64,000 nucleotides of DNA from Nitrospirota bacterium (GTDB lineage Bacteria; Nitrospirota; Nitrospiria; Nitrospirales; Nitrospiraceae): the NCBI GenBank assembly GCA_963701855.1, contig CAVPBK010000006.1, positions 800,001 to 864,000 of the forward strand. Direction: 5' to 3'. Shown one piece after another: positions 12,445 through 64,000 of this stretch (the first letter of the stretch is position 1; each line of letters opens with the position of its first letter). The notes beneath the pieces were generated by a model. That model saw only the letters and a program-made list of their open reading frames with translations. It ran no database searches and was not told where the DNA came from. Both the position numbers and the translations under genes were made by a program.

Positions 12445-13440
12445 TCACTTATCCACGGTCTTGGCACCGGCTTGGTCCCGTCGTGGACTGATCCCGATCA
12501 CGGCTGGTAGTCCGATGTGAGTTGCGATGCTGTCTTCTAATAGGTGTGACCAGCTGTGTAACCCGGCCATTTTAGTCGTAGCTTGTTGGAGCAAGGGGCT
12601 GACGGCGATGTCGGAAGAGGATCCTCCGTCCATGGCCATGACCTGGCGTAGGGAGGGAAAGACGTCCCGCAGACATTTTCCAAGAGCATGGAGTGACACC
12701 ACTTCCGTGGTCTTGAGGACGAAAAGATGTCCATTCATGTGTTCTGCGACAAGAGTCTGATGTGCGCGTTTCCCGGTTTGGCGCACACGGATTTTCCCGG
12801 TCCGGTCAAGGAGCATAAGCGATTGCGCAACTTCTCGATAGGGAACATGCTGCTCATCGAAGGTATCAAAGATCAAATCCAAAACCCGCGCGTGCTGTGA
12901 ACGATCCTCCGCCGGTTCCGCCACAAACAATCCCAGCCAGGTCGCATGCCGCTTACTCCCAAGCGAACGGCCGTTTCCATAGAGCAGCCCTAGATAGGCA
13001 TAATTCTCGCGGAAAAGCCCGGCATTGAATACTAAATCATGGCCGGTTCGTTCTTGCCATTGGCCAATATCGAGCGGTTCTGAGAAGCCATCTTGTTGGT
13101 AGTAGTGCACGGTAAAGCGATAGCGATCGGGGTCGATTTCGACGGCAACCAGCGGCGCGACGTCTGGGCACTGCGTGTGAGGATTCCAGACTGAAATGGA
13201 TAAACCATTTCCGAGTTGGTCCCCCGTAAGGGTCTGAGCCGTCGTCGTCAAAGGTCCGCCGAATATGACGAAGATGATACCCAGGAGAAATCTGGCGGCA
13301 GAGGTGAAAGATAGAGACCAGTGGAAGCTGTTGTCCCGCATCATCGTGTCTCTGGATCGAATAACGTGAGAACCGATATGGAGCGTCAAATCGTTCGAGA
13401 GGAAAGGGCATCGGATTCGATGCAAGTCTCGCATGGTCAA
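12445..13440 (-). CDS. Phosphodiester glycosidase family (NAGPA/DUF2233-like) protein
   Basis: FNAGLF and MAMDGGSSS motifs; true start probably further in (~13344). Confidence 0.7.
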   Translation of the reverse strand: MTMRDLHRIRCPFLSNDLTLHIGSHVIRSRDTMMRDNSFHWSLSFTSAARFLLGIIFVIFGGPLTTTAQTLTGDQLGNGLSISVWNPHTQCPDVAPLVAVEIDPDRYRFTVHYYQQDGFSEPLDIGQWQERTGHDLVFNAGLFRENYAYLGLLYGNGRSLGSKRHATWLGLFVAEPAEDRSQHARVLDLIFDTFDEQHVPYREVAQSLMLLDRTGKIRVRQTGKRAHQTLVAEHMNGHLFVLKTTEVVSLHALGKCLRDVFPSLRQVMAMDGGSSSDIAVSPLLQQATTKMAGLHSWSHLLEDSIATHIGLPAVIGISPRRDQAGAKTVDK

Positions 13441-15059
13441 TGCAGGGCTTTCGAAGATGTCGATGGGGAGGCGCCGGCCCTGTTCGATGGCACATTGGCA
13501 TCAAGCAAATTGCGGACTGCCCGGGCAAGCGCCTCAGGAGTGAAGGGTTTTTGCAAGAAACTGCTCGTTCCTTCTTCTAGTCCAGCCATGATACTGACGT
13601 CATCCATATACCCCGATATGAATAGGGTTCGTAAATCTGGATAGATTACGGAAAGATGCTGTGCCAGTTCCCGGCCGGCCATGCCGGGCATGACGACGTC
13701 GGTCAGAAGAAGCTGAAAGGATCCTGCTTGTTGCGTCGCCAGCAAGCAGGCTTCGATCCCGTTCTTGGCTTCTAGGATCCGATAGCCCAGCTTTCGCAGT
13801 TCGTCTCGCATGAGCACCCGTACGCTTTGTTCATCTTCCACCAAGAGAATCGTTTCCGTACCTCTCTGCGGCTGTCCCAAGGGCTGGGGCGGCGCGGTGG
13901 AGATGACCTCGGACTCGACTCTCGGAAAATACAGGTCGAAGCGCGTGCCGTGGCCTACTCGGCTTTTGACGTCGATGGCGCCACCGCACTGTGTGACAAT
14001 CCCAAATACCGTGGAGAGCCCCAGACCGCTGCCCTTCCCCTCTTCCTTCGTAGTGAAAAATGGTTCGAAGATATGGGATTGGGTCTTGCGGTCCATGCCG
14101 CAGCCAGTATCGCTGACGGCCAACCGGACATAGGGGCCAGGTAGTAACGGGGTGAGGTAGTAGACCGGACTACGGGTCAATTCGACCTGAGCCGTTTCGA
14201 TCGTGAGCGTTCCACCCTTCGGCATGGCATCCCGCGCGTTGACGACAAGATTGACCAGAACCTGCTCAAGTTGGGCTTGGTCGGCACGCAGCCGCCCATT
14301 CGTCTGATCGAGTTTACTGACGAGCCGAATGTCGTCGCCGATGAGGCGGCGCAGCATGGTTTCCAAACTCATGACAGCGGTATTGAGTGACAGAGTTCTC
14401 GGGTCCAGCGATTGTTTACTACTGAACGTGAGTAGTTGCCGAATCAACGTCGCGGCCCGTTCGCCGGCCTTCAGTGTTTCTTCGATCTTTCCGCGAAGGG
14501 GGTGCAGCGGGCCGAGTTCTGTCAAGAGAACTTGACTGTAGCCCATGATGACAGTCAGGAGATTATTGAAGTCATGCGCAATCCCTCCGGCCAACCGGCC
14601 AACTGCTTCCATCTTCTGGGACTGCCTAAACTGTTTCTCGCTCTGCCGAAGAGCCTCTTCTGCCCGCTTCCGTTCGGCTTGGTTATCAAGTTCACGCAGT
14701 GCGCGCTGGACCGAGGGCACCAATCGTCCGAGCCGTTGCTTGAGCACATAGTCCGTCGCGCCTTGATGCATGGCATCGATAGCCAGTTCCTCTCCGATGG
14801 TGGCAGAGACAAAAAGGAAGGGTACATCAGGGCAGTGCTGACGTGCCAAGGTGAGCGCCGTCATCCCGTCGAATCCCGGAATCGAATAGTCCGCCAGGAT
14901 CAGATCCATCCGGCCTTCCTTGAGTGCCGCTACAAATGCCTGACGCGTGTCGACGAGTTGCGACTGGCAGGGGATCCCGCCCTCGATCAAGGTGGTCGTA
15001 ATGAGTTCCGCGTCGACCGGATCGTCCTCGAGGTGGAGCAGGCGGAGTGGGGGTTTCAC
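13437..15059 (-). CDS. Hybrid histidine kinase (REC-HisKA-HATPase-REC)
   Basis: N-terminal receiver, H-box AHDFNNLL, N/G1/F/G2 boxes (NARDAM, DTGCGM, FEPFFTTK, GSGLGL), C-terminal receiver. Confidence 0.93.
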   Translation of the reverse strand: MKPPLRLLHLEDDPVDAELITTTLIEGGIPCQSQLVDTRQAFVAALKEGRMDLILADYSIPGFDGMTALTLARQHCPDVPFLFVSATIGEELAIDAMHQGATDYVLKQRLGRLVPSVQRALRELDNQAERKRAEEALRQSEKQFRQSQKMEAVGRLAGGIAHDFNNLLTVIMGYSQVLLTELGPLHPLRGKIEETLKAGERAATLIRQLLTFSSKQSLDPRTLSLNTAVMSLETMLRRLIGDDIRLVSKLDQTNGRLRADQAQLEQVLVNLVVNARDAMPKGGTLTIETAQVELTRSPVYYLTPLLPGPYVRLAVSDTGCGMDRKTQSHIFEPFFTTKEEGKGSGLGLSTVFGIVTQCGGAIDVKSRVGHGTRFDLYFPRVESEVISTAPPQPLGQPQRGTETILLVEDEQSVRVLMRDELRKLGYRILEAKNGIEACLLATQQAGSFQLLLTDVVMPGMAGRELAQHLSVIYPDLRTLFISGYMDDVSIMAGLEEGTSSFLQKPFTPEALARAVRNLLDANVPSNRAGASPSTSSKALH

Positions 15060-49470: not shown

Positions 49471-52400
49471 ATGGCACAAATCACTGGCTCATCCACGATC
49501 GATTGGTCAGGTATATTGCTTGGACAAGTTAATATTGAGACCGATATCGCCAAGTTCGCCACTCGAGTCGATCAGATAGTTACTGAGTTGGTTAACTTCC
49601 AGGTTACCCCTGTCTTCGTAAGTTCGACAACATTTGTCGGAGACCTTTCTACGGGGGGAAGGCTGACGCTCACGGGTTCAGGGTTCGGCGATGTACTCAA
49701 CTCGTTCGACTTTAAGAATCCCCCGGATGGCACCGGTGAGGTGATCCGGTTCACCGGCACCCTCGATGGCATCGGCAAGGATGTGCTGACCTCCGCCACC
49801 ATCGGATCCACGGGCTTCTCAGAAACAATCAAGGGCAACATCACTATTTCTCCGAACTGGCCGTTTGACTCCGCAAACTATACGGGCACGTTGACCTCGT
49901 TGGTCGTGAAGATTGGCGGTGCCACGGAAATCCTCAGCGGCAACTTCCACCTGACAGGCGACCTCCTCAGCGCGAGCCTGACAGGCACGGTAGCGGGGAT
50001 CTTGGTCGGTTCAGGCGCTAATACAATCAAGATGACGGGCCTGTCGATGTCGCTCGATGTGCTCCAAGCCGCGCTCGGGTCCCCTGAACTGGATTCAGTC
50101 GATGATCTCTTCGCCTTTCTGAATAACCACCTTCCTGGCAACGACACGATTACCTATGCCAACAACTCGAGCGTCGGGATGACGTTTTACGGCGGTGGCG
50201 GCAACGACACGATGACCATTAGCGGACCCAACGCAGATACGCTGAATGGTGGCGTGGGCAACGACACACTGAATGGAGGTGCGGGCAACGATACGCTGCT
50301 GGGTGGGGACGGCAACGATGTTTTCCTGATCAGGTCTGCCACGGATCATGGGGTGGGAGAGGTCATCGACGGGGGTGCGGGCAGCGACGTCATCCGTTTC
50401 ACCAGCACCAACGGGGGTCAGATCCTGACGCTAGCTACGGGCGTCACGACGGTTGAGAGCGTGGTGATCAGCACCGCAGCGGGTGTCACCACCGGCACCA
50501 CTGCGCTCAACGTGGACGCCTCCGCCGTGGGCAACGGCCTGTCACTCACCGGCAACGCAGGTGCGAACAGACTCACCGGTACCAGCACTAACGATACCAT
50601 GAACGGGGGGGCGGGCAACGACACGCTGATCGGCGGTGCGGGGGAGGATACAGTCACCGGCGGCACCGGGAATGACCGCATCGTTATGCTGGTCACCGGG
50701 GGCAATGTGGACGTTGCGGACGGAGTCGCGGGCAACGACACGCTGGCGCTCGTCGGCGCGATCGATGGGGACGGCGTGGTGGTGGTTGATTTGTCCTCGC
50801 TGACCGACCAGGTAACCCACATCGGCACGGTCGATCCTGAGAAGCTGGTCCAAAAGAATTTCGAGAATCTGGATGCCTCGGGGCTTGGCAGTTCAGTGCA
50901 CGCGACCGGCAGTGCCGACGCCAATATCATCATCGGTTCGGACGATACCGACAGCATCAATGGCGGCGCTGGCAACGACACGCTGAATGGGGGCGCAGGC
51001 GACGATACGTTGCTGGGCGGGGACGGCAACGATGTGTTCTTGATCGGGAATGCCGCGGACCATGGCGGGGGCGAGGTGATTGATGGGGGTACGGGCGCTG
51101 ACGTAATCCGCTTCACCAGCATCACCGATGGTGACGGGTTGGTCCTCAGAGCACAGATCACAGGGGTGGAGAGCGTGGTGATTGGCAATGCTGCGGGGCT
51201 GACCACCGACACGACCAGGCTCGACGTGAATGCGATCAGTGTGGGCTACGGCCTGTCTCTCACCGGCAACGCAGGCGATAACCAGCTTGTCGGGACTGAT
51301 TTCAATGACGTGCTCAATGGCGGTGGCGGCGACGACAGCCTCAACGGGGGCTTGGGCACCAATACGCTTATTGGAGGTACTGGGAACGACCTTCTGGACG
51401 GGTCGGGAGGCACAAACACACTGATCGGGGGCGCGGGGAACGACCAATATGTTATCGACTCCTCCACCGACGTGGTCATTGAAGCGCTGAATGCCGGCAC
51501 CGACTTGGTCATCAGTTTTATAGAGACGTGCACCCTTGGGCTCAATGTGGAAAACCTGATTCTGGTTGGCAACAATACTCAAAACGGCACCGGTAATGCG
51601 CTGAATAACATCATTTATGGCAACGTCAGCAGCAACCAGCTCTCCGGGCTCGCGGGCAATGACACGCTGACCGGCGACTGGGGGGAAGACATCGTCGACG
51701 GAGGGGCTGGCAACGACCGCATCGTCATGCTGGTGACTGCTGGGGATGTGGATACTGCGGACGGGGGCACGGGCACCGACACGCTGGTACTCGGCGGCGC
51801 GGTCGGGGGCAACGGCATCGTGGTCGTCAATTTGGTGGCGGGTGCAGGCGACCAGGTCACGTTCAGTGATGATACCCTGGTGCAGAACAATTTCGAGAAT
51901 CTGGATGCCTCGTATCTGTCCCTTGGTGGATCAGTGACTGTCACGGGCAGTGCCGGCGCCAATAGCCTCATCGGCTCAAGAGGCACCGACACCATCAACG
52001 GCGGCGGCGGCAACGACACGCTGGATGGGGGCGCGGGCGACGATACGCTGAATGGGGGGAACGGCAACGATGTCATCTTGATCGGGAATGCTGCTGATCA
52101 TGGCGGGGGCGAGGTAATCAACGGGGGGACAGGCACGGACGTGATCCGCTTCACCAGCACCACCGATGGTGAGGGGTTGGTCCTCAGAGCACAGGTCACG
52201 GGGGTGGAGAGCGTGGTGATCGCGAATGCGGCGGGGCTCACGACCGGCACGACCGCACTCAACGTGGATGCGTCTGCACTCAGTAGCGGGCTCTCCCTCA
52301 CCGGCAACGCGGGCGACAACGTGCTGACCGGCACCGGCGGGAACAACATCCTGAACGGGGGCGCGGGCAACGATACCTTAAATGGTGGAGGCGGCATCAA

Positions 52401-55400
52401 TACGCTGATCGGTGGCACCGGGAACGATCGGTATATTGTGAACTCCCTGACCGACGTGGTGAGCGAAGCGCTGAACGCGGGCACCGACACCGTGGTGGCC
52501 TCCCTCACCACCTACACCCTCACTGCGAATGTAGACAATCTGGAGCTGGCGGGGGCGGCGCTCATCGGCATCGGCAACACGCTCAACAACATCATAACCG
52601 GCAATGACGGCGACAATACGCTCTCCGGGCTCGCGGGCAACGACATCCTCATCGGCGGCGCGGGGCAGGACACGATCAACGGGGGTGTGGGCAACGACCG
52701 CATCGTCATGCTGGTGACCGCTGGGAATGTGGACATCGCGGACGGGGGCGCGGGCATCGATACGCTGGCGCTCGTCGGTGCGGTCGACGGGGACGGCGTG
52801 GTGGTGGATTTCTCCTCGGTGACGGACCAGGTGACCCGTATCGGCGCGGTCGAGCATGAGTCGCTGGTGCAGAAGAACTTTGAGAACCTGGATGCGTCGG
52901 GACTAGGACTGGGCAATACAGTAACTGTCACCGGCAGTGCCGGCGCCAACCTCCTCATCGGCTCGAATGGCGCCGACAGTATCAATGGTGGCGTTGGCAA
53001 CGACATCCTCACCGGCGGGGCCGGCAGCGATATGCTGAATGGCGGAGATGGCAACGATATTGTTATCTGGGATTCAGCTGACACCAGCGTGAGAGGAGGC
53101 GCAGGCACCGATACGCTGCGGATCGACGGCGCAGGTGTGCACGTTAACTTGACGGTAGTTCCGGACGGGGTCATCACGGACATCGAGGTGATCAACCTCA
53201 CCGGCAGCGGCAACAACATTCTCACGCTCGCTTCTGCCGATGTGCTGGCGATTTCTACCACGACCGACACCTTGCGGGTGGACGGCAACAGCGGGGACGT
53301 AGTGAGCGCAGTGCCGGGCTGGGTACGAACCCAAAACATTGTCATCGGCGCACAGACTTATGCCCAGTACACCAACGACGGTGCGCTGCTCCAGGTGGAT
53401 ACCGATATCAACAGTTCCGGAATCGGTGCGATCAGTCTATCGTCGCTTACTGGCGCCAATGGTTTCAAGCTCTTAGGCGCAGGTGCAGGTGACCATTCCG
53501 GCATTTCGGTGAGTTGCGCAGGCGATGTGAACGGCGACGGGTTTGCCGATCTGATCGTCGGGGCATCGGACGCAGCTCCGCACGGCCTCTCTTCCGGGGC
53601 AAGCTACGTGGTGTTTGGCAAAGCAAGCGGCTTTGCCGCGAATATCAATCTCTCGAGCCTCAACGGCACGGACGGTTTCATGTTGTCAGGGATAGCGGCG
53701 AACGACCAATCCGGCATTTCGGTGAGTAGCGCAGGCGATGTGAATGGCGATGGCTTTTCCGATCTGATAATCGGAGCGCCCGGCGCTACCATTGGACAGG
53801 GCGCGAGCTATGTCGTATTCGGCGAAGCGGGTGGCTTTGGCTCGACCATCGACCTGTCCTCTCTGGACGGAATCACCGGCTTCAAGTTGTCAGGGACAGC
53901 GGCGAACGAACAATCTGGCTTCTCGGTGAGCGGCGCAGGCGATGTGAATGGCGATGGATTCGACGACATTGTCATCGGATCGCCCAGCTTCAATAACGCG
54001 AGTTGGGTGGTCTTCGGCAAGGTGAGTGGCTTTCCCACAGCTATTGCCGTATCCGCTCTGAACGGGGTGGGTGGTTTTGGGCTTGGTGAAAACTTTGCGA
54101 CACAATTTGGCCACAGCGTGTCAAGCGCAGGTGACTTCAACGGCGACGGCCTTGACGATGTGATCATTGGTGCGCCCCTTGCTGACGTACCTGTCTTTTC
54201 GGGAGGCTTCCATCCCGACAACGGAGCCGGCTACTTGTGGTTCGGCAAGAGTGGCGGATTTACCATGAACAGTACGAGTCCGTTGAAAGGCACTCTGGAC
54301 AACGATCATCTCGGCTTTTCTGTCAGCGGCGTGGGCGATGTGAATGGTGACGGTTTTGACGACGTGATCCTCGGAGCCATCGGTGCCGATACCAATGGCC
54401 CCGATTCGGGAGCGAGCTACGTTGTCTTCGGTTTCCAGGGGTTAGTGACGCCCGATTTCGAACTCTCGTCACTGAATGGTACCAATGGTTTTAGGATCTT
54501 GGGTGCAGCGGGGGGTGACCAATCCGGTTTCTCAGTGAGCGGCGCTGGAGATGTGAACGGCGACGGGTTTGACGATCTGATCATTGGAGCGCCTGATGCC
54601 GACCCGCACGGCCTCTCTTCCGGGGCAATCTATGTGATATTTGGAAAGCCGGCCGGTTTTTCCGCCAATCTCGATCTTTCCACACTGTCTGACGCTGATG
54701 GATTCAAAATCTCAGGCGCAGCAGTGGGGGACAATTCCGGCTCTTCGGTGAGCAGCGCGGGGGATGTGAACGGCGACGGGTTTGACGATCTCATCGTCGG
54801 GGCACCCTCTGGCGACCCGAACGGCAGCGGTTCCGGGGCGAGCTATGTGGTATTCGGCGCGGACTTCCGCGGCGATATCAACATTGCCGGTACAGCTGGC
54901 GATGACATCCTGACAGGCACGGACGGAGCAGACATCGTATTCGGCGGGCTCGGCAATGACACATTGGACGGCGGCGCGGCCGCTGACTTTCTGAACGGCA
55001 ACGCGGGCGATGACATCTTGATATTTGATGGCCTGGATCGGCGCATTGACGGCGGCAGCGGGACAGACACTTTGTTGTTCAACGGCTCAGGACAAACACT
55101 CGATCTGACCAGTCTCGCTAACAGCAAGATTAACGGTATTGAAACAATCAACCTGACCGGCAGCGGTGATAACGCGTTGATCCTCACCGGCCAGGACTTG
55201 CACGATCTGTCGGACACCAGTAACGCGCTGCGTGTGGATGGTAATCCTGGTGACACCGTGAACGCGGGGTTCGGGTGGGGTTTTGGCAGCAATGTCACCA
55301 TCGGAAATCAGGCCTATGTCCAGTACACCCAGGGAAACGCCGTATTGCGAGTTGACAGCGATATTGCGCTTACGATTGGGAATGCTGTAATTCTCTCGGC

Positions 55401-57381
55401 TTTGAGCGGAACGGATGGTTTCAAGCTCAACGATGCTGTGCTAATCGATTCCTCTGGCCGTTCGGTGAGTGGCGCGGGCGATGTGAACGGTGACGGATTT
55501 GACGACCTTATTGTCGGGGTGAGCGTTGCGAGTCCGAATGGCGACTTGTCGGGACAGAGCTATGTAGTCTTTGGCAACGGCAGTAGCTTTGTGCCGCAAA
55601 TCAATCTCCCGAGCCTCGATGGTACCAACGGTTTTCAACTCTCCGGCGAAGCGGCTGATGACCGCTGTGGCGGCGACGTAAGCTCAGCGGGGGATATTAA
55701 CGGCGACGGCTTTGACGATCTCATCGTCGGGGCAAGTCTCGCCGATTCGAGTGGCAGCAATTCCGGGGCAAGCTACGTGGTGTTTGGCCACGCAGGCGGC
55801 TTTGCGGCGAACCTCGAGCTCTCGAGCCTCAACGGCACGAACGGTTTCAAGCTTTCCGGCGCGGCGGCGGGCGATCGCCTTGGCACAGTCAGCGAGGCGG
55901 GCGATGTCAACGGGGACGGGTTTGACGATCTTATCGTCGGGGCACCCTCTACCTCCCCGAACGGTAGCGCTTCGGGTGCAAGCTATGTGGTATTCGGCAA
56001 GAGCGGTGGCTTTGCATCGAATATCAATCTCTCGAGCCTCGATGGTACCAACGGCTTCAAGCTCTCCGGTATCGCGACGGAGGACATTTCCGGTGCTTCG
56101 GTGAGTGGCGCAGGCGATATGAACGGAGACGGATTCGGCGATATCATCATCGGCGCGCCTGGCGCGGATCTGAACAATCCCGGTCCGGGTTACTTTACCT
56201 TGAGCGGGCAGAGTTATGTGGTGTTCGGCAAAGCCGGAGGGTTTGATGCCAATGTTAACCTTTCTGACTTGAACGGCACCAACGGCTTCAAGTTGAACGG
56301 AGCAAACGGCGACGAATCCGGAAGCTCCGTGAGCGCAGCAGGGGATGTCAACGGCGACGGGTTTACCGATGTCATTATCGGCACAACCCCGGTCGGGACT
56401 AGTGTGGCGGCGAGCTACGTGGTGTTCGGCAAAGGCGCGGGCTTTGCGGAGGACATCGAACTCTCGCTCTTGGATGGTACTGACGGCTTCAAATTGATCG
56501 GTGGGAATGAACTTTCATCCCATTCGGTGAGCAGCGCTGGTGATGTGAACGGCGACGGGTTCGACGATCTCGTCGTTGGTGCATCTCGTGCCGACGCGAG
56601 CGGGATCGACTCCGGTCAGAGCTATGTGGTCTACGGCAAGAGCGGTGGGTTTGGTGCGACTCTCGTCCTGTCGCAGATAACCGAGTCAGATGGCTTTGTG
56701 ATCAACAATACGGCTTTCGGGATCGGCGATGGTTTTGAACTTAACTATTCCGGAAGTTCAGTGAGCGGCTCGGGGGACGTGAATGGTGATGGCTTTGACG
56801 ATCTCCTCGTCAGCGCGCAAGGCGCCAGCTTCGAAATGTTTGGGGGCAACTTTACCAGGTCGGTGGACTTCCTCGGTACGAGCGGCAACGATATCCTTAT
56901 CGGCAATGGTAGCGCCAACATCCTCATCGGCGGCCTGGGCAACGATACCCTTGACGGCGGCGCGGGCGATGACAGGCTAGCGGGCGGGCTCGGCAACGAC
57001 ACCTTCTTCTTCGGTCTCGGCGATGGACAAGATCTAGTGCGGGACAACAGCGGCTCTGCCGACAAGATATCGTTCGACGGGGGCATCAATCCGCTAAATC
57101 TCGTCATCAGTCGGCAAGCCAATGATCTGCGGATTGCAATTCATGGCACATCTGACCAGATCACCGTGCAGAACTGGTACACAAGTTCAGTTAACCGGAC
57201 GGAGACGATCCAAGCAGGCAATGGCGAAGTGTTGCTCAGCACGCAGGTGGATCAGCTCATTCAAGCGATGGCCCAATTCACGACAGATACCGGCCTGAGC
57301 TGGGAGGGTGCTATCGAGAGCGGTGGGACCCCACAACAACAAACGCAGTTCCAGGGCATCCTGGCCGCGAGCTGGCAGTAA
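49471..57381 (+). CDS. Giant RTX Ca-binding protein with two 7-blade FG-GAP (integrin-alpha-like) propellers; probable T1SS-secreted adhesin
   Basis: Many GGxGxDxL nonapeptides, 14 GDVNGDGFxDLIxGA repeats in two sets of 7, C-terminal QVDQLIQAMAQF...ILAASWQ, no Sec signal. Confidence 0.9.
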   Translation: MAQITGSSTIDWSGILLGQVNIETDIAKFATRVDQIVTELVNFQVTPVFVSSTTFVGDLSTGGRLTLTGSGFGDVLNSFDFKNPPDGTGEVIRFTGTLDGIGKDVLTSATIGSTGFSETIKGNITISPNWPFDSANYTGTLTSLVVKIGGATEILSGNFHLTGDLLSASLTGTVAGILVGSGANTIKMTGLSMSLDVLQAALGSPELDSVDDLFAFLNNHLPGNDTITYANNSSVGMTFYGGGGNDTMTISGPNADTLNGGVGNDTLNGGAGNDTLLGGDGNDVFLIRSATDHGVGEVIDGGAGSDVIRFTSTNGGQILTLATGVTTVESVVISTAAGVTTGTTALNVDASAVGNGLSLTGNAGANRLTGTSTNDTMNGGAGNDTLIGGAGEDTVTGGTGNDRIVMLVTGGNVDVADGVAGNDTLALVGAIDGDGVVVVDLSSLTDQVTHIGTVDPEKLVQKNFENLDASGLGSSVHATGSADANIIIGSDDTDSINGGAGNDTLNGGAGDDTLLGGDGNDVFLIGNAADHGGGEVIDGGTGADVIRFTSITDGDGLVLRAQITGVESVVIGNAAGLTTDTTRLDVNAISVGYGLSLTGNAGDNQLVGTDFNDVLNGGGGDDSLNGGLGTNTLIGGTGNDLLDGSGGTNTLIGGAGNDQYVIDSSTDVVIEALNAGTDLVISFIETCTLGLNVENLILVGNNTQNGTGNALNNIIYGNVSSNQLSGLAGNDTLTGDWGEDIVDGGAGNDRIVMLVTAGDVDTADGGTGTDTLVLGGAVGGNGIVVVNLVAGAGDQVTFSDDTLVQNNFENLDASYLSLGGSVTVTGSAGANSLIGSRGTDTINGGGGNDTLDGGAGDDTLNGGNGNDVILIGNAADHGGGEVINGGTGTDVIRFTSTTDGEGLVLRAQVTGVESVVIANAAGLTTGTTALNVDASALSSGLSLTGNAGDNVLTGTGGNNILNGGAGNDTLNGGGGINTLIGGTGNDRYIVNSLTDVVSEALNAGTDTVVASLTTYTLTANVDNLELAGAALIGIGNTLNNIITGNDGDNTLSGLAGNDILIGGAGQDTINGGVGNDRIVMLVTAGNVDIADGGAGIDTLALVGAVDGDGVVVDFSSVTDQVTRIGAVEHESLVQKNFENLDASGLGLGNTVTVTGSAGANLLIGSNGADSINGGVGNDILTGGAGSDMLNGGDGNDIVIWDSADTSVRGGAGTDTLRIDGAGVHVNLTVVPDGVITDIEVINLTGSGNNILTLASADVLAISTTTDTLRVDGNSGDVVSAVPGWVRTQNIVIGAQTYAQYTNDGALLQVDTDINSSGIGAISLSSLTGANGFKLLGAGAGDHSGISVSCAGDVNGDGFADLIVGASDAAPHGLSSGASYVVFGKASGFAANINLSSLNGTDGFMLSGIAANDQSGISVSSAGDVNGDGFSDLIIGAPGATIGQGASYVVFGEAGGFGSTIDLSSLDGITGFKLSGTAANEQSGFSVSGAGDVNGDGFDDIVIGSPSFNNASWVVFGKVSGFPTAIAVSALNGVGGFGLGENFATQFGHSVSSAGDFNGDGLDDVIIGAPLADVPVFSGGFHPDNGAGYLWFGKSGGFTMNSTSPLKGTLDNDHLGFSVSGVGDVNGDGFDDVILGAIGADTNGPDSGASYVVFGFQGLVTPDFELSSLNGTNGFRILGAAGGDQSGFSVSGAGDVNGDGFDDLIIGAPDADPHGLSSGAIYVIFGKPAGFSANLDLSTLSDADGFKISGAAVGDNSGSSVSSAGDVNGDGFDDLIVGAPSGDPNGSGSGASYVVFGADFRGDINIAGTAGDDILTGTDGADIVFGGLGNDTLDGGAAADFLNGNAGDDILIFDGLDRRIDGGSGTDTLLFNGSGQTLDLTSLANSKINGIETINLTGSGDNALILTGQDLHDLSDTSNALRVDGNPGDTVNAGFGWGFGSNVTIGNQAYVQYTQGNAVLRVDSDIALTIGNAVILSALSGTDGFKLNDAVLIDSSGRSVSGAGDVNGDGFDDLIVGVSVASPNGDLSGQSYVVFGNGSSFVPQINLPSLDGTNGFQLSGEAADDRCGGDVSSAGDINGDGFDDLIVGASLADSSGSNSGASYVVFGHAGGFAANLELSSLNGTNGFKLSGAAAGDRLGTVSEAGDVNGDGFDDLIVGAPSTSPNGSASGASYVVFGKSGGFASNINLSSLDGTNGFKLSGIATEDISGASVSGAGDMNGDGFGDIIIGAPGADLNNPGPGYFTLSGQSYVVFGKAGGFDANVNLSDLNGTNGFKLNGANGDESGSSVSAAGDVNGDGFTDVIIGTTPVGTSVAASYVVFGKGAGFAEDIELSLLDGTDGFKLIGGNELSSHSVSSAGDVNGDGFDDLVVGASRADASGIDSGQSYVVYGKSGGFGATLVLSQITESDGFVINNTAFGIGDGFELNYSGSSVSGSGDVNGDGFDDLLVSAQGASFEMFGGNFTRSVDFLGTSGNDILIGNGSANILIGGLGNDTLDGGAGDDRLAGGLGNDTFFFGLGDGQDLVRDNSGSADKISFDGGINPLNLVISRQANDLRIAIHGTSDQITVQNWYTSSVNRTETIQAGNGEVLLSTQVDQLIQAMAQFTTDTGLSWEGAIESGGTPQQQTQFQGILAASWQ

Positions 57382-57480: not shown

Positions 57481-58512
57481 TTATCGGATCGTCATCGTCT
57501 GCTGGACGGAACCTTGAAGAGCCTGTTCCTGACTCTCTCGCACCAGCGTGATCTCGCCCCGATAGGTACCTGGAGTCCACAGATCGGCGTTCCGACGTGC
57601 TCCCGCAAAGGCGAAATGCCGGGCCTGGGTCTTGGCGATGGCCGTCACGTGATCCAGCACCACGACCCCATCCGGTCCCGTGAGGTGGAAGCGCAGACGA
57701 TCACCCGCTTCCACGCCTAGGATATCCACCCAGAGCACCAAGGCCGCTGACGTCGCGCTGGGGGGCGGATCTTCGATCTTCCCCGCGCGAATGGCGTCGA
57801 TCTGTGGAGAGCTTCCGGCGACACCCGCATGATAGAGGGCGAAGGGTTCATACGAAACAGGCTGATCTGTGTGCCACATCGACGTGCCGCCGCGTCCGCA
57901 TCCGGCGATGCTGGATTGGCCCGTGAACGGATCGATCACCTGGCCCTGATGCCGCACCGTCACATGTACGTGGGGGAACTCGGTCTGGCCTGAAAGCCCG
58001 ACCAGCCCCAGCTCCTGACCGTGTGCCACACGCTCGCCTCTCTTCACACGCACCGTCCCACGGCGCACATGGCAATACTGCGTCTGCCAGCCCTGCTCAT
58101 GATCGAGCACCACGCCATTCCCGCATTCTCGGCCGGCAATCCGCTCGCGTGACAGCGCATCGGTCAGGGCCACATCAGCCATGCCGTCCCGTACGCTCCG
58201 GACCACACCCGGCGCACTAGCCCGCACAGGCACCCCTGCCGCCATCACCGACAGATCCCGAATGGCAAAGTCCGTCCCATCGTGTCCCTGATAGGTCCGA
58301 GCATGGCAACGGAAATCGTGCGCGGTTGTCGCGGGATCGACATCCACATAGTTCGCCACCCAGCAGGTCTCGCCCAGTCGGCACTCAAGCGGCAGCCCAA
58401 GTTCGAAAGGATCAAGAGACGGAAGACGGTGAGCGAGATCCGTGGCGCTCGCGAGCGAGACCACAAGCACAGACAGGATCACAAGCATGAGGCGCAAAAG
58501 GGGAAGAGCCAT
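57481..58512 (-). CDS. M23-family metallopeptidase
   Basis: Signal peptide, HDGTD (HxxxD), YCH, PHVH (HxH). Confidence 0.88.
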   Translation of the reverse strand: MALPLLRLMLVILSVLVVSLASATDLAHRLPSLDPFELGLPLECRLGETCWVANYVDVDPATTAHDFRCHARTYQGHDGTDFAIRDLSVMAAGVPVRASAPGVVRSVRDGMADVALTDALSRERIAGRECGNGVVLDHEQGWQTQYCHVRRGTVRVKRGERVAHGQELGLVGLSGQTEFPHVHVTVRHQGQVIDPFTGQSSIAGCGRGGTSMWHTDQPVSYEPFALYHAGVAGSSPQIDAIRAGKIEDPPPSATSAALVLWVDILGVEAGDRLRFHLTGPDGVVVLDHVTAIAKTQARHFAFAGARRNADLWTPGTYRGEITLVRESQEQALQGSVQQTMTIR

Positions 58513-58764: not shown

Positions 58765-59035
58765 TCACGCAGCTATGATGCGTTGAACGGTGCAATTGCC
58801 TATGCCCAGTTTTCGCGCTATCGCTCGCATACCTCGACCTTGCTTCCGTAAGGCCACCACCTGAGCCTCCACAGCAGCACTTACGCGAGGCCTCCCCAAG
58901 ATCTTGCTCTCTGCCCTGGCGTGCTTCAGACCAACCTTGACGCGCTCCACAATCATGCTGCGCTCAAACTCTGCGAAGACCCCCGGCATTTGAAAGAGCA
59001 ACTTTCCCGCTGGGGTAGTGGTGTCGATGCCCCTT
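58765..59035 (-). pseudogene. Serine recombinase (resolvase/invertase) C-terminal fragment
   Basis: GIDTTTPAGKLLFQM.GVFAEFER...GRPR plus HTH; the catalytic N-terminus is missing. Confidence 0.8.
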
Positions 59036-59058
59036 TGTAGCCTCTCCGAAGCCAGGAG

Positions 59059-59270
59059 CATGAGCAGTATCAGGAGCAGTAAAGCAGAAGCAGAAAAAGG
59101 AGAAGGGCCTGTGTCTCCGACGGTCGATGACGGGTTTGAGAAATTTTTGCGATGCTACCCTCGGAGGGACAAAAAACAGGAGGCATGGAAGGCCTGGAAC
59201 CAGCTCTATCCAAACGAGCTACTCGTCCAGACGATTCTTGAGGCCATCGAACGCCAGAATCTCCAACACG
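59059..59270 (+). pseudogene. Fragment resembling a phage/MGE replication-protein C-terminus
   Basis: FEKFLRCYPRRDKKQEAWKAWNQL matches the FxxFWxxYPxKxxKxxAxKAW pattern; truncated. Confidence 0.5.
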
Positions 59271-59711
59271 TACCGGCTCAAAGTCCTGCTATGTCTGTTT
59301 TTATTGGCCGCTTGCGTGGAAATTCCAACAAGGAGGCAAATTGGTCCGGAGAATTATCCGAGGGAAGATAACACAGCCGGATCATGTGTCTGAGACGGAT
59401 AACGTTGAGCTGACTATGACAGGTGTCGATAAGGTCATTTTCCCTGAAAATGAATATCGAATATTCGAACGCTACGGACATGACTTCATGTATTCAGACA
59501 ATGCAGAAAATGCTGCGTTGATTGGTATCGGAGGCTCCTCTAAAGCCTTTCTGGTTTGGAAAGTATATGCCGACGACATGCCGCCTCAGACTGGGAGTAT
59601 CGGGATCCCTGATATTCCAGATCTATCCTAGCTAAGTATCAATTCGCACCGAATAAAGAAACCCGTTAGGCACTATTTAGGCACTGGAGGTTTTCAGGCA
59701 TGCATAAGTGA

Positions 59712-59742
59712 TGGTGGTCCCAACGGGATTTGAACCCGTGTC
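59712..59742 (-). mobile_element. att site: duplicated 3' end of a tRNA (Glu-like)
   Basis: Minus strand GACACGGGTTCAAATCCCGTTGGGACCACCA gives T-arm, acceptor 3' strand and CCA only; no anticodon or D arm. Confidence 0.8.
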
Positions 59743-59861
59743 TTAACACGACTACGACTTCGCCCTTATTCTTCAGAGGCTTCGAACATTTTATTCAAGT
59801 CAGAAAGGGGTACGACTAAAACAAGAGAGTGTCAGGTCGCATCAAAGATCCCCACGTTGCC

Positions 59862-59945
59862 GCCTAACGTCGTGCGGTGCGGCCGGCCGCAACGGTTGAG
59901 ATGGTGCAACGCTGGCGGCCGGTCCGCACCAGCTACAGGTTAGGT
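59862..59945 (-). other. Integron attC site (cassette 3)
   Basis: Minus strand ACCTAAC...GTTAGGC with an internal imperfect palindrome (GGTGCGG(A)CCGGCCGC arms), 84 bp. Confidence 0.88.
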
Positions 59946-59950
59946 GCACG

Positions 59951-60451
59951 TCAGTGAAATTGCTGAACAAGCCACCACCCTGCGTGACAGTAGAAGTATG
60001 CGCCGGCCCCATCGTATTCACTTCGAAGAATTGGGCCACTGGTAAAGCTGCTCGCCGGGCCACGTTCGCGAACATTGTCGCGGTAGAAGAACTCACTTAG
60101 CTTCATTCGCTCATCGCGGATAACGGTTAGTCCTCCGGGGTAGTTTTGCCATGAGATTGTGCCCGGGCACTTGTTTGACTGTCCTACGATCACCAGAAGG
60201 TACTTCTCGGGTGCCTTTGGCCTCGTACACCAGAATACAGCACTCTCGTCTCGAGCGCCGGGTAGATAGTCAAGCACGTAAGGCGGGTCAAGCAAACCTG
60301 GACGTTTGAAGAAATCCGTGATTTCGCTGCACCCATGTGTGGTCGCAGCCTCGATCAGCGGTTCCGGTAAGGTCTGCCCATGCGCCACGGTAGCTCCACT
60401 GATCATCGCCAAACTAAGGAGGCCAGCGAGAAAACGTGGGCGCCAAGTCAT
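59951..60451 (-). CDS. Cassette 3 gene: exported hypothetical protein
   Basis: Signal peptide (...ATVAHG-Q); fills the space between two attC sites. Confidence 0.75.
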   Translation of the reverse strand: MTWRPRFLAGLLSLAMISGATVAHGQTLPEPLIEAATTHGCSEITDFFKRPGLLDPPYVLDYLPGARDESAVFWCTRPKAPEKYLLVIVGQSNKCPGTISWQNYPGGLTVIRDERMKLSEFFYRDNVRERGPASSFTSGPILRSEYDGAGAYFYCHAGWWLVQQFH

Positions 60452-60457
60452 ACGTGC

Positions 60458-60527
60458 ACCTAACGTTTGAAATTACCGGCGCTGCGCGGCTTTATCGCGC
60501 AGCGTCCGGTGGAATGAGGGGTTGGCC
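60458..60527 (-). other. Integron attC site (cassette 2)
   Basis: Minus strand GGCCAAC...GTTAGGT with ACCGG(A)CGCTGCGCG arms, 70 bp. Confidence 0.88.
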
Positions 60528-60547
60528 CTCGCGGCGTACGTAATAGC

Positions 60548-61072
60548 TCACTTCGTGACTTTCAGCCGGGCCACGATAGAAAGTGCTCGCCCAGACACTT
60601 TGTCTTTTACGTTCGCGGTAATCTTGTAGTCACCAACAGGATCAGATTTATCAAAACCTACGGTCAGGCTAGCCAGGCCCAGCTGCAAATGCCGTTGCTG
60701 CATAGGCTTTCCAGACCAGACTGGGCCACCGCCCGCCGGTGTTTTGCTCCCGTCTGGGCCTTCGAGAATGAACTCGGAAACTACGTCGCAGACGCCCCCG
60801 TCATTCGGCGAGCAACCATGAAAAATGAGAAGTGCAGAGACCGACCCGCCGAGACGCACGGTATTGGCAGCACTCAGTTTCGGTGGAGTCTCGGACGAGT
60901 TCCATGTCTGGCGAAACTGACCTTCGTCCGCAGTAAGAACTATGTGAGCACCGAAGTCTCCAGCACTGCGCATGCTCTCAGTATCGGGGAGCAGTTTTCC
61001 AGTTGGATCAATCCATGCGCTCTGAGCAACAAACGGAAGAAGTGCGACGAGCAACGTCAAACACTATTTCAT
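60548..61072 (-). pseudogene. Cassette 2 gene: exported hypothetical protein with an amber stop at codon 3
   Basis: GGAG RBS then ATG AAA TAG TGT TTG...; the rest of the frame is open, with a signal peptide (ORF track starts at TTG 61060). Confidence 0.65.
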
Positions 61073-61093
61073 AAGAGAAACTCCAATAGTGAG

Positions 61094-61159
61094 GGCCAAC
61101 GTAAAGTTGAGGGGCGAAGCCACGCAGTGGCGAAGTCCCTCTCGAACGACAGGTTAGAC
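61094..61159 (-). other. Integron attC site (cassette 1)
   Basis: Minus strand GTCTAAC...GTTGGCC with imperfect palindromic arms, 66 bp. Confidence 0.88.
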
Positions 61160-61166
61160 TTATAAC

Positions 61167-61493
61167 TCATAACTCATAACTGATACTAACCTGTTTATTA
61201 GTGATTGTGCTCGATACTACCCCTTGCGATGTAACGTAGAGTTTTTCGCTTTCTAGCTTGCGGCCATCTGCGAACGTTGCCACGATCCAAAGCTGTTTAT
61301 CTCCACCCGAAATATTGAGGCGAACGGATTTATTAGTTGGAATAGTGGCGGTATGTGATTCGCCCACATCAGTATGAGTTTCCACCGATACTGATTCAGA
61401 GCTGGTATTAGCGATTACCGCAACAGGTGACGAGCAAGCACACAGACAGAACGAAAGAGCGATAGCGAGTATGTGAGCAAGAATTCGTTTCAT
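61167..61493 (-). CDS. Cassette 1 gene: hypothetical lipoprotein
   Basis: MKRILAHILAIALSFCLCAC lipobox; lower GC than the host genes. Confidence 0.75.
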   Translation of the reverse strand: MKRILAHILAIALSFCLCACSSPVAVIANTSSESVSVETHTDVGESHTATIPTNKSVRLNISGGDKQLWIVATFADGRKLESEKLYVTSQGVVSSTITNKQVSISYEL

Positions 61494-61495
61494 AT

Positions 61496-61514
61496 GGCTA
61501 ACTATGTATTATCT
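61496..61514 (-). other. attI-like recombination site
   Basis: Minus strand AGATAAT-ACATA-GTTAGCC versus attI1 CCCTAAA-ACAAA-GTTRRRY; sits at the start of the first cassette and is not part of an attC palindrome. Confidence 0.65.
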
Positions 61515-61808
61515 GGTTCTGCATAAGATCCCCGTCGTCGTGCGACGCTGGATAAGACCCGTACGATATTCGGGCAGAATCAGAGCATAAGTCCAAGATC
61601 GTTCTCAGGGATTTGTCTTTGCCTCCTTTGCCCATGGGGTCTTATGCGGTTCCGTATAAGACCCTCTGACTTCGAAAGCGTCAGGGGGAGGGAATGGGTG
61701 GGGGTCTGTGTTAACTCTAGAACAGAGCCCTGCCTCGAACGCCTACTTGATATAAGCCACTGCCGAACAGAGATGGCTACGCTGTACAGAGGGAAATCCC
61801 CCGCCCCG

Positions 61809-62042
61809 TTACAGGGTTCGGGCGCAGAACACTTCGTCTTGGCGGAGGGCTTCGAGGGCGGAGGCGGGCACGCTGGTGACGGCAATCGTCTCGCCCAGTG
61901 CGTTGAAGACTTCGATGGAGTACCCCTCTGTGCCATCAGGGGCTATGTGATGGTCTACGAGTTTCACGATGTCGCCACGACGGAGACGATGCTCTGGCAC
62001 TTCACACTTCAGCGCCACATCCGTGTACAACTCAAACTTCAT
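61809..62042 (-). CDS. DUF4926-like small protein (putative antitoxin/immunity)
   Basis: MKFELYTDVALK..PEHRLRRGDI....D...GYSIEVFNALGETIAV; ATGA overlap with the upstream gene. Confidence 0.7.
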   Translation of the reverse strand: MKFELYTDVALKCEVPEHRLRRGDIVKLVDHHIAPDGTEGYSIEVFNALGETIAVTSVPASALEALRQDEVFCARTL

Positions 62043-62374
62043 TCGGTCCTCCGCTTGTCTGGAATCAGTGTAACGAACTTCGTGACGCCCGACAAGTGTT
62101 CTGTCATCCAGATGGTGCGAACGGGCAGTGCCACGCCGTTTGAGCCGGTCAGCGTGCCTCGGACTTCATAGTACTGGCCGAATGTGTTTGACTCCAGTCG
62201 TTGTGCCTCCAAAGGCAGGATTTGGGCGCGCAAGTCCCGCAGTAGGTGCCCTGCGTTTTCCCGCTCATATCCTGCTTGTGCCAAAAAAGCCGATTTGTCT
62301 CCGCGCGTTTGCGGCAACAACAAGTACCGCGTCAGTTTGTCTTCCGCGATGGTGGTATCCGGGGGCAGCCTCAT
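62039..62374 (-). CDS. DUF6883-like protein (putative toxin)
   Basis: KLTRYLL...DKSAFL...FGQYYEVRG.L.G.NG....VRTIW...FVTLIP. Confidence 0.7.
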   Translation of the reverse strand: MRLPPDTTIAEDKLTRYLLLPQTRGDKSAFLAQAGYERENAGHLLRDLRAQILPLEAQRLESNTFGQYYEVRGTLTGSNGVALPVRTIWMTEHLSGVTKFVTLIPDKRRTE

Positions 62375-62519
62375 ACGTCCTCACCCGCGCAGTATGTCAA
62401 CAGTCCTATGCACAGTCAGCACTGTTGCCACCACCTCTTTCTTGCCCTTCAAGCCCGGCACCGTAGCTTTGTACTCGCACGTGATCATCGTGGGAGACCT
62501 ATCCTATTTACCTACCTGA

Positions 62520-62594
62520 GAGAGTGCAAGGTTCAGCCAATGGCCCACCTGTAAAGAGTTCGATTCACTCGCAGGAATCCAGCACGGCCTTTAT
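62520..62594 (-). pseudogene. VapC/PIN toxin remnant
   Basis: (ATA)KAVLDSCE*IELFTGGPLA resembles the VapC N-terminus MKxxxDSSGWIEFF..GP; start codon lost, internal stop, remainder deleted. Confidence 0.6.
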
Positions 62595-62800
62595 GATCGG
62601 TCTTTCTTCTCCCGCAGATCCGTCCTGGACATCCCCTTGAGCGCTCCCTTGAGTGACTTGAGGGGAACTTCCGGCACCAGGGTGATGACACCACCTTTCT
62701 CCACGACGTGAAGATGCTGTCTCGGCCTGAGGTGCAGTTTTTCCCGCACTTCCTTGGGAATTACAATTTGGAACTTCGGTGAGATCGTCGTCGTGGCCAT
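62591..62800 (-). CDS. AbrB/MazE-family antitoxin
   Basis: MATTTISPKFQIVIPKEVREKLHL; AAGGAG RBS before ATG 62800. Confidence 0.85.
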   Translation of the reverse strand: MATTTISPKFQIVIPKEVREKLHLRPRQHLHVVEKGGVITLVPEVPLKSLKGALKGMSRTDLREKKDRS

Positions 62801-63127
62801 GGCAGGACTCCTTACCAATTCGTGGGCGATCATTGTTTTGTCATATGTTGCGAGTCAAGGCAAACGATGCTCCTGCGCCGCCTCACAAAATGAACGATCC
62901 CTTACTCAAAGAGGGCTACTTGTCCTTTACTATCCCAAGCTGTCCTCAACTGCCTAATTCCATTCTCCCCCTCTTTGCTCTACGCTCATGATCATGTCGA
63001 GAGTTCAGGCCTGTTCACACGAGCGCGACGGCATGACTACCCCAGCGCACATCAGCGTACATCTGCCTAATTCCCAGGGCAGAATCTCCGACGTAGGGTG
63101 GGAGAACGTTTGAACCAAGGAGGGCCT

Positions 63128-63409
63128 ATGAAGACATCGGATTTGTCGATCAAAGAACTCGCCGCCTTCATTCGCGTGAGTACGGACACCATCCGGCGAG
63201 CGGTTCGCAACGGCGAGATTCCGTCGACAAGGGTCAGGACCGCGTTACGGTTTGATCTGCAGGAAGTCAGCACCTATATGCAGCGGAACGCAGAGGCCAG
63301 GTTTGGGGCACGCTCGACTCGCGCGCGGGGCGGCACTGCCGGCCGCGCGCAGGCTGATCAGCCCCCTGCTGGTAAAACGGGGGCGCAATTTCCAGGCAAC
63401 GGATCATGA
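63128..63409 (+). CDS. Excisionase-like HTH protein
   Basis: LSIKELAAFIRVSTDTIRRAVRNGEIPS.RV....RFD; AGGAGG RBS. Confidence 0.8.
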   Translation: MKTSDLSIKELAAFIRVSTDTIRRAVRNGEIPSTRVRTALRFDLQEVSTYMQRNAEARFGARSTRARGGTAGRAQADQPPAGKTGAQFPGNGS

Positions 63410-63855
63410 TTATTTCCAACCGATTAGACAGCAACCCTGTTCCTCAGAGAGTACTCGCATCAGGACATGAGACCTCCGTAGAACTGCGCCAGCAAGTCTG
63501 TCATCGGTGTGGAAAGGTCTGGTGGCCTCGTCGCCCCAAAAAACCAGCCCGATGTCCCGGTTGCAAAAGTCCCTACTGGGATAGGCCCCGCCGCCTAAAA
63601 CACCCCATCATGCCCTTGAACGGACCCGTGAGCCAAGGAGCACTGGCGAAGTCTTTACGTCGGAAAATGGCAAGGACCCTTGGGGGAGGGCACGAGCACG
63701 GGAAAGATGCCGAGGACCGCTCCTTGGCAACAGCACTTCACGTGCTCAAGGAGATGAAAGCAGCCGGAAAGACCTGGCAGGAGATGGGAGAACGCATGGA
63801 ACGGGAATTCGGCGCGAGCCTGGAGAAGGATCAACTGAAAGCGCTCGTCCGATAA
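63406..63855 (+). CDS. Zinc-finger hypothetical protein of the mobile element
   Basis: CHRC...W...P..CPGCKSPYWD; ATGA overlap with the xis-like gene. Confidence 0.65.
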   Translation: MIISNRLDSNPVPQRVLASGHETSVELRQQVCHRCGKVWWPRRPKKPARCPGCKSPYWDRPRRLKHPIMPLNGPVSQGALAKSLRRKMARTLGGGHEHGKDAEDRSLATALHVLKEMKAAGKTWQEMGERMEREFGASLEKDQLKALVR

Positions 63856-64000
63856 GCACTCAATTCCCTGCCCCCCACCACCTCCGGGGCAGGGATCAAT
63901 CCGAGTCGCGGGGCGGTGCACATCGCAGCGGGCGGGCCTGGAAGGTGGCAGGAAGGCTGGCCCGATGCTCTGTCGCGCCGCGCTGCCACTAAAGAGACGC

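Follow-up and report, generated by a model that had tools for sequence, protein, structure and literature searches.

A CALIN is a cluster of attC sites lacking an integron-integrase, and loss of the integrase gene intI is listed among its origins (Cury 2016, PMC4889954). The same source notes a group of same-orientation integrases, with Treponema. Two CALINs are reported in Ca. Nitrospira inopinata, and attI sites are presented as poorly described outside class 1 (Neron 2022, PMC9024848). CALINs can be mobilized in trans (Xanthomonas preprint, 10.1101/2025.06.18.660453). Although they are common, ideas on where they come from and whether they are active are mostly guesswork, because attI is rarely recognizable outside the clinical classes. 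The DNA analyzed here (the window) comprises 64,000 nt from the genome of a soil Nitrospira (phylum Nitrospirota; assembly GCA_963701855.1, contig CAVPBK010000006.1, positions 800,001 to 864,000; in our notation G000:C6:800001-864000). Near its right edge an island of 5.5 kb, integrated in tRNA-Glu(CTC), carries a cassette array at its attR end. An earlier reading of the letters alone (the original prediction) had proposed a small tRNA-integrated element with an array and an attI but no intI, and the comparisons below bear this out: the array is almost certainly a CALIN that has kept its attI on a tRNA island. G numbers designate genomes and L numbers loci (L047 lies in G106, L037 in G072, L119 is G032:C212); G000, the source genome, is 97% complete in 15 contigs. 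Coordinates above 64000, called window-scale, continue the same numbering beyond the right edge of the window.

The head of the array, at which only an attI-like core had been noticed before, is homologous to the attI of complete integrons. Over ~170 nt, window positions 61496-61666 align with what directly follows the stop codon of intI in G044, G004 and the fragment G029, and also with an intI remnant of G000 itself (C6:756721-756876); together with the window these make up the five training rows of the nhmmer attI profile. Further attI sites picked up by the profile lie immediately after intI in G082 and G071 and after a fragment in G079. In the complete integrons of G044, G004, G082 and G071 attI has the same length and layout as in the window, and in the complete integrons of the clade intI, attI and cassettes share one orientation (G004: intI 12962-13903, attI 12982-12769 and attC 9279-9345, all minus; G044: intI 543-1481 and attI 1461-1677, both plus). 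Five of the seven window matches to the GNNCTTATNC motif fall within 61521-61663, and these five copies are putative IntI-binding boxes. At 29 loci elsewhere in the genus the core that precedes G|TT hardly varies, and divergence begins right after GTTRR, the pattern expected of a crossover point. Judged by this homology, the attI and its G|TT crossover are real. The sequence cTTGGACTTATG at 61585-61596 had been considered as the start of cassette 1 and was ruled out, since the attI homology places the crossover at 61502-61500. Elsewhere in the genus, further full or partial attI copies occur inside arrays, 1.4-2.8 kb apart (L048 on G004:C104, 9950-10167; L102 on G013:C317; L096 on G079:C7; L037, 8757-8908), reminiscent of the delta-attI cassettes mentioned in PMC12901181.

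The same attI is empty in G032, holds three cassettes in G000 and holds two other cassettes in G106. The G032 locus (G032:C212) corresponds to two parts of the window, 61495-61703 (87.6% over 209 nt) and 59712-59868 (90.4% over 157 nt), which in G032 abut at GTTAG and form an empty attI; the segment at 59826-59868 is thus the native right half of attI. The motif GTTAGGC at 59868-59862, taken in the original prediction for a cut-off fourth cassette, has to be reassigned to this right half on the evidence of G032 and G106. G106 (L047) has an attI scoring 49.7 bits, its own cassettes (attC 557-618 and 174-263) and the same terminal segment. It also retains the last ~12 intI codons in front of attI, which indicates that the platform is a complete integron with intI lost. 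In G008 the terminal segment remains, with one attC and part of the last cassette of G106, and attI is lost, while the array of G072 (L037), with its three attC sites, includes a partial attI and is followed by a different downstream flank. The terminal segment is present in four of 85 genus genomes. A metagenome pattern scan with a degenerate 17-mer yielded at least one relevant locus among 80 examined, L153, with the same array as G106.

Three complete cassettes follow on the minus strand, as originally proposed, and their attC sites lie within 1.3 kb (Table 1). The attC covariance model R2 was built from eight rows; its next best match in the 64-kb window reaches 12.6 bits. Because all three sites belong to the training set, independent evidence weighs more. 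A model made from attC_B alone matched an attC of the complete G004 integron at 57.2 bits, and G009 holds a copy of attC_B with 93.9% identity over 66 nt; attC_B belongs to the same attC family as in the G004 and G009 integrons. R2 also recovered attC sites outside its training set, in true integrons, in other arrays and downstream of other attI sites. Among 20 aligned attC sites (three of them reverse-strand twins) 93.6% of cells pair, against 26-39% in slid controls, and compensatory changes affect 13 of the 19 pairs, a number reached by none of 500 shuffles, in an alignment fitted to the model. Compared with shuffled sequences, the stems of attC_B and attC_C fold far better (z -4.3 and -4.4) and that of attC_A does not (z -0.6); pairing by hand leaves two unpaired bases, G and T, in L'' of the attC_A bottom strand. 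For cassettes 2 and 3, the complementarity between the start and the cassette's own R'' end that had been claimed earlier is confirmed and extends over 10 and 13 nt, respectively. Each cassette carries one open reading frame (ORF) with a signal-peptide-like start and no match in Pfam, NCBIfam, PHROGs or PADLOC. In the 84 other genus genomes the ORFs of cassettes 1 and 3 have one distant homologue each (41% and 40% identity) and that of cassette 2 has none.

Three other approaches to the attC sites were abandoned. A crude scan for AAC...GTT combined with folding recovered strong attC sites but was noisy and lost attC_A and attC_B under stricter rules, so that covariance models were used instead. 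MAFFT alignments (A1-A3) were inconsistent in structure and no model was built on them, and the single-sequence covariance model R1 was too specific, missing attC_A at E 10 in 88 kb. Elsewhere in G000, lone attC-like sites are found at C13:81490-81557 and C14:43157-43253 among the 150 of 1041 attC candidates that were scored.

Table 1. Features of the cassette array and of the tRNA-Glu island (window numbering; positions above 64000 are window-scale).
Feature	Position	Strand	Remarks
attI, ~170 nt	61496..61666	-	palindrome 61636-61664; core ends ...ACATAG|TTAGCC, GTT = 61502-61500; nhmmer 144 bits (the window is a training row)
Native right half of attI	59826..59868	-	starts GTTAGGCGGCAAC; common to G032 (empty attI), G106 and G008
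Stretch common to G000 and G032 only, 37 nt	61667..61703	-	TGA aligns with intI stop codon of remnants at other loci
attC_A	61094..61159	-	R'' GTCTAAC, R' GTTGGCC; R2 34.6 bits
attC_B	60458..60527	-	R'' GGCCAAC, R' GTTAGGT; R2 72.1 bits
attC_C	59862..59945	-	R'' ACCTAAC 59945-59939, R' GTTAGGC 59868-59862; R2 57.3 bits
Cassette 1, 402 nt	61100..61501	-	ORF 61167-61493, 108 aa, lipoprotein-like N-terminus; ATG 7 nt past GTT
Cassette 2, 636 nt	60464..61099	-	ORF 60548-61060, 170 aa, no family
Cassette 3, 596 nt	59868..60463	-	ORF 59951-60451, 166 aa, signal-peptide-like N-terminus, no family
attR	59712..59741	-	30-nt exact repeat of the tRNA-Glu(CTC) 3' end (T-arm, acceptor stem, CCA); aragorn, longest common substring
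Conserved island arm adjoining attR	59742..59825		common to all 9 elements compared; matched in 22/85 genus genomes
DUF4926 and DUF6883 genes	61809..62374	-	DUF4926 61809-62042 (39.8 bits), DUF6883 62039-62374 (55.1 bits); overlapping small genes at the usual place of intI
AbrB/MazE-type antitoxin gene with start of partner gene	62531..62833	-	antitoxin gene 62591-62833 plus ~60 nt of the partner gene's start; hidden Markov model (HMM), relatives
Excisionase-family helix-turn-helix gene	63098..63409	+	TIGR01764, 42.4 bits
Zinc-ribbon ORF, kept in island family	63406..63855	+	ORF comparison among relatives
Island integrase (XerC/D-like tyrosine recombinase)	64005-65153 (outside window)		adjoins tRNA-Glu, with 64290-65153 beside it
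Intact tRNA-Glu(CTC)	65235-65312 (outside window)	-	aragorn

No integron-integrase accompanies the array. The genome-wide search for IntI returned no match in G000 over the cut-off (TIGR02249, 265 bits), the best piece being Xer-like with 80.8 bits. Using the IntI of G004 and G055 as queries over window-scale 59000-66000, tblastn matched only the generic C-terminus of the island integrase, with nothing IntI-like from attI to the excisionase gene; elsewhere in G000 it found Xer-like genes and two short C-terminal IntI remnants on C6, at ~756.8 kb and ~178.0 kb. The usual place of intI is taken by small genes that had been described as TA-like (toxin-antitoxin-like) and then by an excisionase-like gene, and HMM matches agree: DUF4926 and DUF6883 form a pair that appears TA-like from its sequence, and R2 finds no attC behind it. 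The 37 nt immediately before attI are non-coding and without the conserved GVRSP codons, but in alignment their TGA coincides with the stop codon of intI remnants at other loci, so that this stretch is probably the decayed 3' end of intI. A second decayed integron (L009) occupies G000:C6:755524-756876, ~43-44 kb left of the window start, with the last ~56 intI codons interrupted by an internal TAG, then a G004-type attI (nhmmer 157 bits) and a cassette that ends in an attC at 755524-755595 (33.1 bits). Two partial attI-like matches and the IntI C-terminal fragment near 178.0 kb lie elsewhere in G000 (C6:177955-178097; C6:634620-634754; C6:1234074-1234133).

In the explanation favored here, which as a whole, later turnover included, carries somewhat better than even confidence, the locus represents a Nitrospira-type integron platform that has lost intI and retains an intact attI together with three cassettes inserted by IntI. 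The platform would have begun as a complete integron borne by the island, from which intI was then deleted. After the death of intI, cassettes would have been precisely gained or lost at this attI at least once, through catalysis by an IntI encoded elsewhere, on another integron, a plasmid or an island. This service in trans is, on the sequence comparisons, moderately probable in its own right. If the 37-nt stretch reflects one inherited deletion, the filled state of G000 and the empty state of G032 arose after the loss of intI, and a change in either direction needs an IntI from elsewhere. The remnants of G000 and G032 end within ~10 nt of each other, and those elsewhere range from ~12 to >130 codons. 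In the present genome nothing could move the cassettes, and the island itself would probably be immobile. Lacking IntI and with its island integrase broken, the present copy seems frozen today.

A second set of loci, outside the island, offers a cleaner and independent case for such turnover. L091 (G016), L093 (G009), L098 (G093) and L108 (G027) have 63-260 nt upstream of attI in common, including the junction with a truncated intI. The attI of these four species is 85-90% identical, and none of the six pairs is alike in the 450 nt after GTT. In all four, ~100 nt ending in ...CCAAGTCAAGCAACG are joined to the truncated intI 3' end, and this ~100-nt unit is itself joined to two different contexts further upstream; from its sequence it looks like the end of a mobile unit carrying the dead-intI platform.

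Several points weigh against the favored explanation. Upstream of the shared 37 nt, G000 (DUF4926/DUF6883) and G032 (mazEF) are unrelated, so that a shared intI deletion would require a further rearrangement at this very point; the two deletions may instead be independent, with turnover while an intI in cis was still alive. A dead-intI allele, in the four other species as elsewhere, could also have spread by homologous recombination through attI, the recipients keeping their own cassettes, with no IntI in trans. None of the four carriers of the platform has an IntI over the cut-off (G000 97%, G072 99%, G106 90% and G032 90% complete), most of the compared genomes are metagenome-assembled, and the contig of G032 stops 370 nt past the locus. 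Cassette 1 agrees at its start with its own R'' end over 5 nt only. A simple sigma-70 scan detected no promoter-like site in attI, although Nitrospira promoters may differ. R2 rests on few sequences, which makes its E-values rough, and it was run on seven of the eight relative elements, L036 being left out for its size and covered by the attI profile and the crude AAC...GTT scan.

Much of the same evidence can be arranged as a plain fossil, in which the cassettes were inserted under the island's own intI, intI was lost independently in the lineages of G000, G032 and G106, and no IntI has acted since. This account is a possible one, although doubtful. Loss of intI is very common in the genus: the window attI has matches in 43 of the 85 genomes, and an IntI over the cut-off occurs in six (14 at E 1e-25 with fragments counted). 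For 29 attI loci that were fetched, 26 of them with at least 1.25 kb upstream, tblastn detected an IntI remnant in one; in several others, short intI 3' tails of differing length can be made out by eye, and the tail of G106 has yet another end point. An attC lies downstream on the same strand in 13 of the 29 loci, in 11 of them at E 0.013 or better. These counts and the survey establish that the loss of intI with attI and cassettes kept is the common state in the Nitrospira genus. The unlike flanks of the G000 and G032 stretch and the lack of IntI in the carrier genomes likewise suit a fossil, and so does the invariance of the array in soil. In four of four soil runs, from four studies and one possibly the source sample, contigs carry the array at 99% or more and bridge the junctions attI/cassette 1, cassette 1/2 and cassette 2/3. 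No variant joints were found in these contigs, but contigs drop rare variants, so that minor empty or reshuffled forms are possible. The central stems of attC_B and attC_C also occur with other flanks in the same runs, which indicates that other cassettes use these attC families. A plain fossil sits less well with the near-identical end points of the G000 and G032 remnants against the wide range elsewhere, and with the four other species, in which one dead-intI junction is followed by four unrelated first cassettes.

If IntI service in trans, as preferred here for the G000 attI, were general, the orphan attI sites of Nitrospira, present without intI in about half of the species genomes, would be live docking sites, served by the few cells or plasmids in a community that bear IntI (six of 85 genus genomes would qualify as donors) and carried by small units such as the tRNA-Glu island and the unit upstream of attI in the four species. 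This wider proposal is tentative. If true, it would amount to a community-level integron, with its platform and its integrase residing apart.

The island that carries the platform is itself well delimited. The original prediction had seen a tRNA 3' att fragment, and this is an exact 30-nt repeat of the intact tRNA-Glu(CTC); extension to the right, which had been suggested as a check, reached that tRNA and an XerC/D-like element integrase, and no intI. From the tRNA inward the order is integrase, zinc-ribbon ORF, excisionase gene, AbrB/MazE antitoxin gene, DUF6883/DUF4926, attI and cassettes. The integrase scores 134 bits with XerC and 128 bits with XerD, against 52 bits with TIGR02249, the last in the C-terminus only. 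At E 1e-40 or better it occurs in 24 of the 85 genus genomes (G000 counted), and IntI is absent from all 24 loci found through it. The layout of repeat, integrase and tRNA recurs in eight relatives. The nine complete elements compared (G000, L036, L037, L039, L041, L043, L045, L046 and L047) all have the integrase and the excisionase gene, and 114 nt at the attR end are common to them; most also have the zinc-ribbon ORF. The comparison of related elements with excisionase and zinc-finger genes, also suggested earlier, shows that the cargo is not fixed: between the common parts it differs in every one of the nine. In this copy the antitoxin's partner, 123 aa in relatives, is deleted down to ~60 nt, and the integrase (356-411 aa in relatives) has a TAG at window-scale 64218-64220 where L036 has CAG. 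From this nonsense codon the island is probably immobile; the copy may lack an intact integrase, reinitiation downstream of the TAG being possible.

A more purposeful role for such islands was part of the original prediction, in which selection maintains the attI of the element, without intI, for docking, and the element serves as a vehicle that gathers cassettes with a borrowed IntI and carries them between hosts. In G000, G032 and G106 attI abuts the conserved attR arm and would therefore travel with the island; the attI core is highly conserved across orphan loci, and the fill states differ. Yet attI or attC is found in only three of the nine complete elements and the terminal segment in four of 85 genomes, attI is lost in G008, and the present copy has both the integrase nonsense codon and the truncated partner gene. 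Moreover, the integrase region and the chromosomal flank diverge about equally, single high-scoring pairs of 80-90% spanning both, which argues against recent transfer of the island. Selection for a docking vehicle thus appears improbable. Recombination by IntI in trans stands as the simplest reading of the comparisons; the idea that attI is kept as a strategy finds no support, given the intI tail of G106 and the three elements of nine. The term satellite is likewise unsupported, as the ORFs gave no packaging, capsid-redirecting or replication genes in the Pfam, NCBIfam and PHROGs scans.

The island's own XerC/D-like recombinase might in principle recombine attI and attC with no IntI at all, being the sole recombinase in the element and IntI being related to XerC/D (Cury 2016, PMC4889954). 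This is very unlikely: its repeats are the 30-nt tRNA-Glu core, another kind of site, six of the nine elements with this integrase have no attC or attI, the attI and attC families belong to integrons with a true IntI, and the IntI model matched in the generic C-terminus only. Least credible of all is insertion by IntI at a secondary, non-attI site, or a chance look-alike of attI, since, even though CALIN formation at such sites is documented (Cury 2016, PMC4889954), the window is homologous over ~170 nt, with length and layout alike, to the intI-adjacent attI of four complete integrons and concentrates five of its seven box-motif matches in this stretch.

The surroundings of the island show further traces of mobile DNA. 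Left of attR, window 58765-59631 contains the C-terminal fragment of a resolvase (98 aa), along with two small ORFs that belong to no family; this flank is absent from all relatives, and another island remnant probably adjoins the tRNA-Glu hotspot. In L119, a 45-nt tRNA-Glu 3' fragment at 9429-9473 is longer than the 30-nt core, and the 1.15 kb between it and attR contain only mazEF and the empty attI, which suggests tandem islands of different att lengths at tRNA-Glu in G032. At G000:C6:430461-430527 there is an 81% match to part of the island excisionase gene, with a tyrosine-recombinase fragment 3 kb off (C6:433545-433670); the pair may be a second related island remnant. Left of the resolvase fragment, window 49471-57381 encodes a secreted repeat protein of 2636 aa, whose Gly/Asp-rich repeats, judged by eye, look calcium-binding and FG-GAP-like; the gene for an M23 peptidase comes next, at 57481-58512.

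The attI described here is readable across the genus, so that the rate of intI loss, the exchange of cassettes at orphan platforms and the movement of platforms by islands become checkable. The empty allele of G032 and the filled alleles of G000 and G106 constitute a ready substrate pair for a recombination assay. For the ecology of nitrifiers, the cassettes are rare, predicted secreted ORFans, typical of niche-adaptive cargo. In the literature searched, supplements lying outside the search, neither a Nitrospira attI nor an attI carried without intI on an island was found described.

The locus belongs to a known kind, an integron that has lost intI, hence a CALIN; what is uncommon is a recognizable attI with empty and filled alleles. 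Like the CALINs described in PMC4889954 and PMC9024848, it has at least two clustered attC sites, cassettes of unknown function and no intI nearby or in the genome, and the origin by intI loss fits. In contrast to CALINs as portrayed in these sources, it retains an attI that can be tied to the attI of complete integrons, a relative carries the empty-attI allele, and the array stands against the attR arm of a tRNA island. With the same-orientation integrons of Nitrospira (G004, G082, G071) and of G044, from the same order, it shares the attI and attC_B families and the succession of intI stop, attI and cassettes, whereas here intI is missing and the DUF6883/DUF4926 pair stands in its place. With SGI1 (PMC2297512) it has in common an integron platform within a site-specific island that encodes its own tyrosine integrase and excisionase. 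However, SGI1, as characterized there, keeps intI1 in a complex class 1 integron, is far larger, carries resistance genes and uses another target site, while the present island measures 5.5 kb, belongs to an environmental nitrifier and carries ORFan cassettes.

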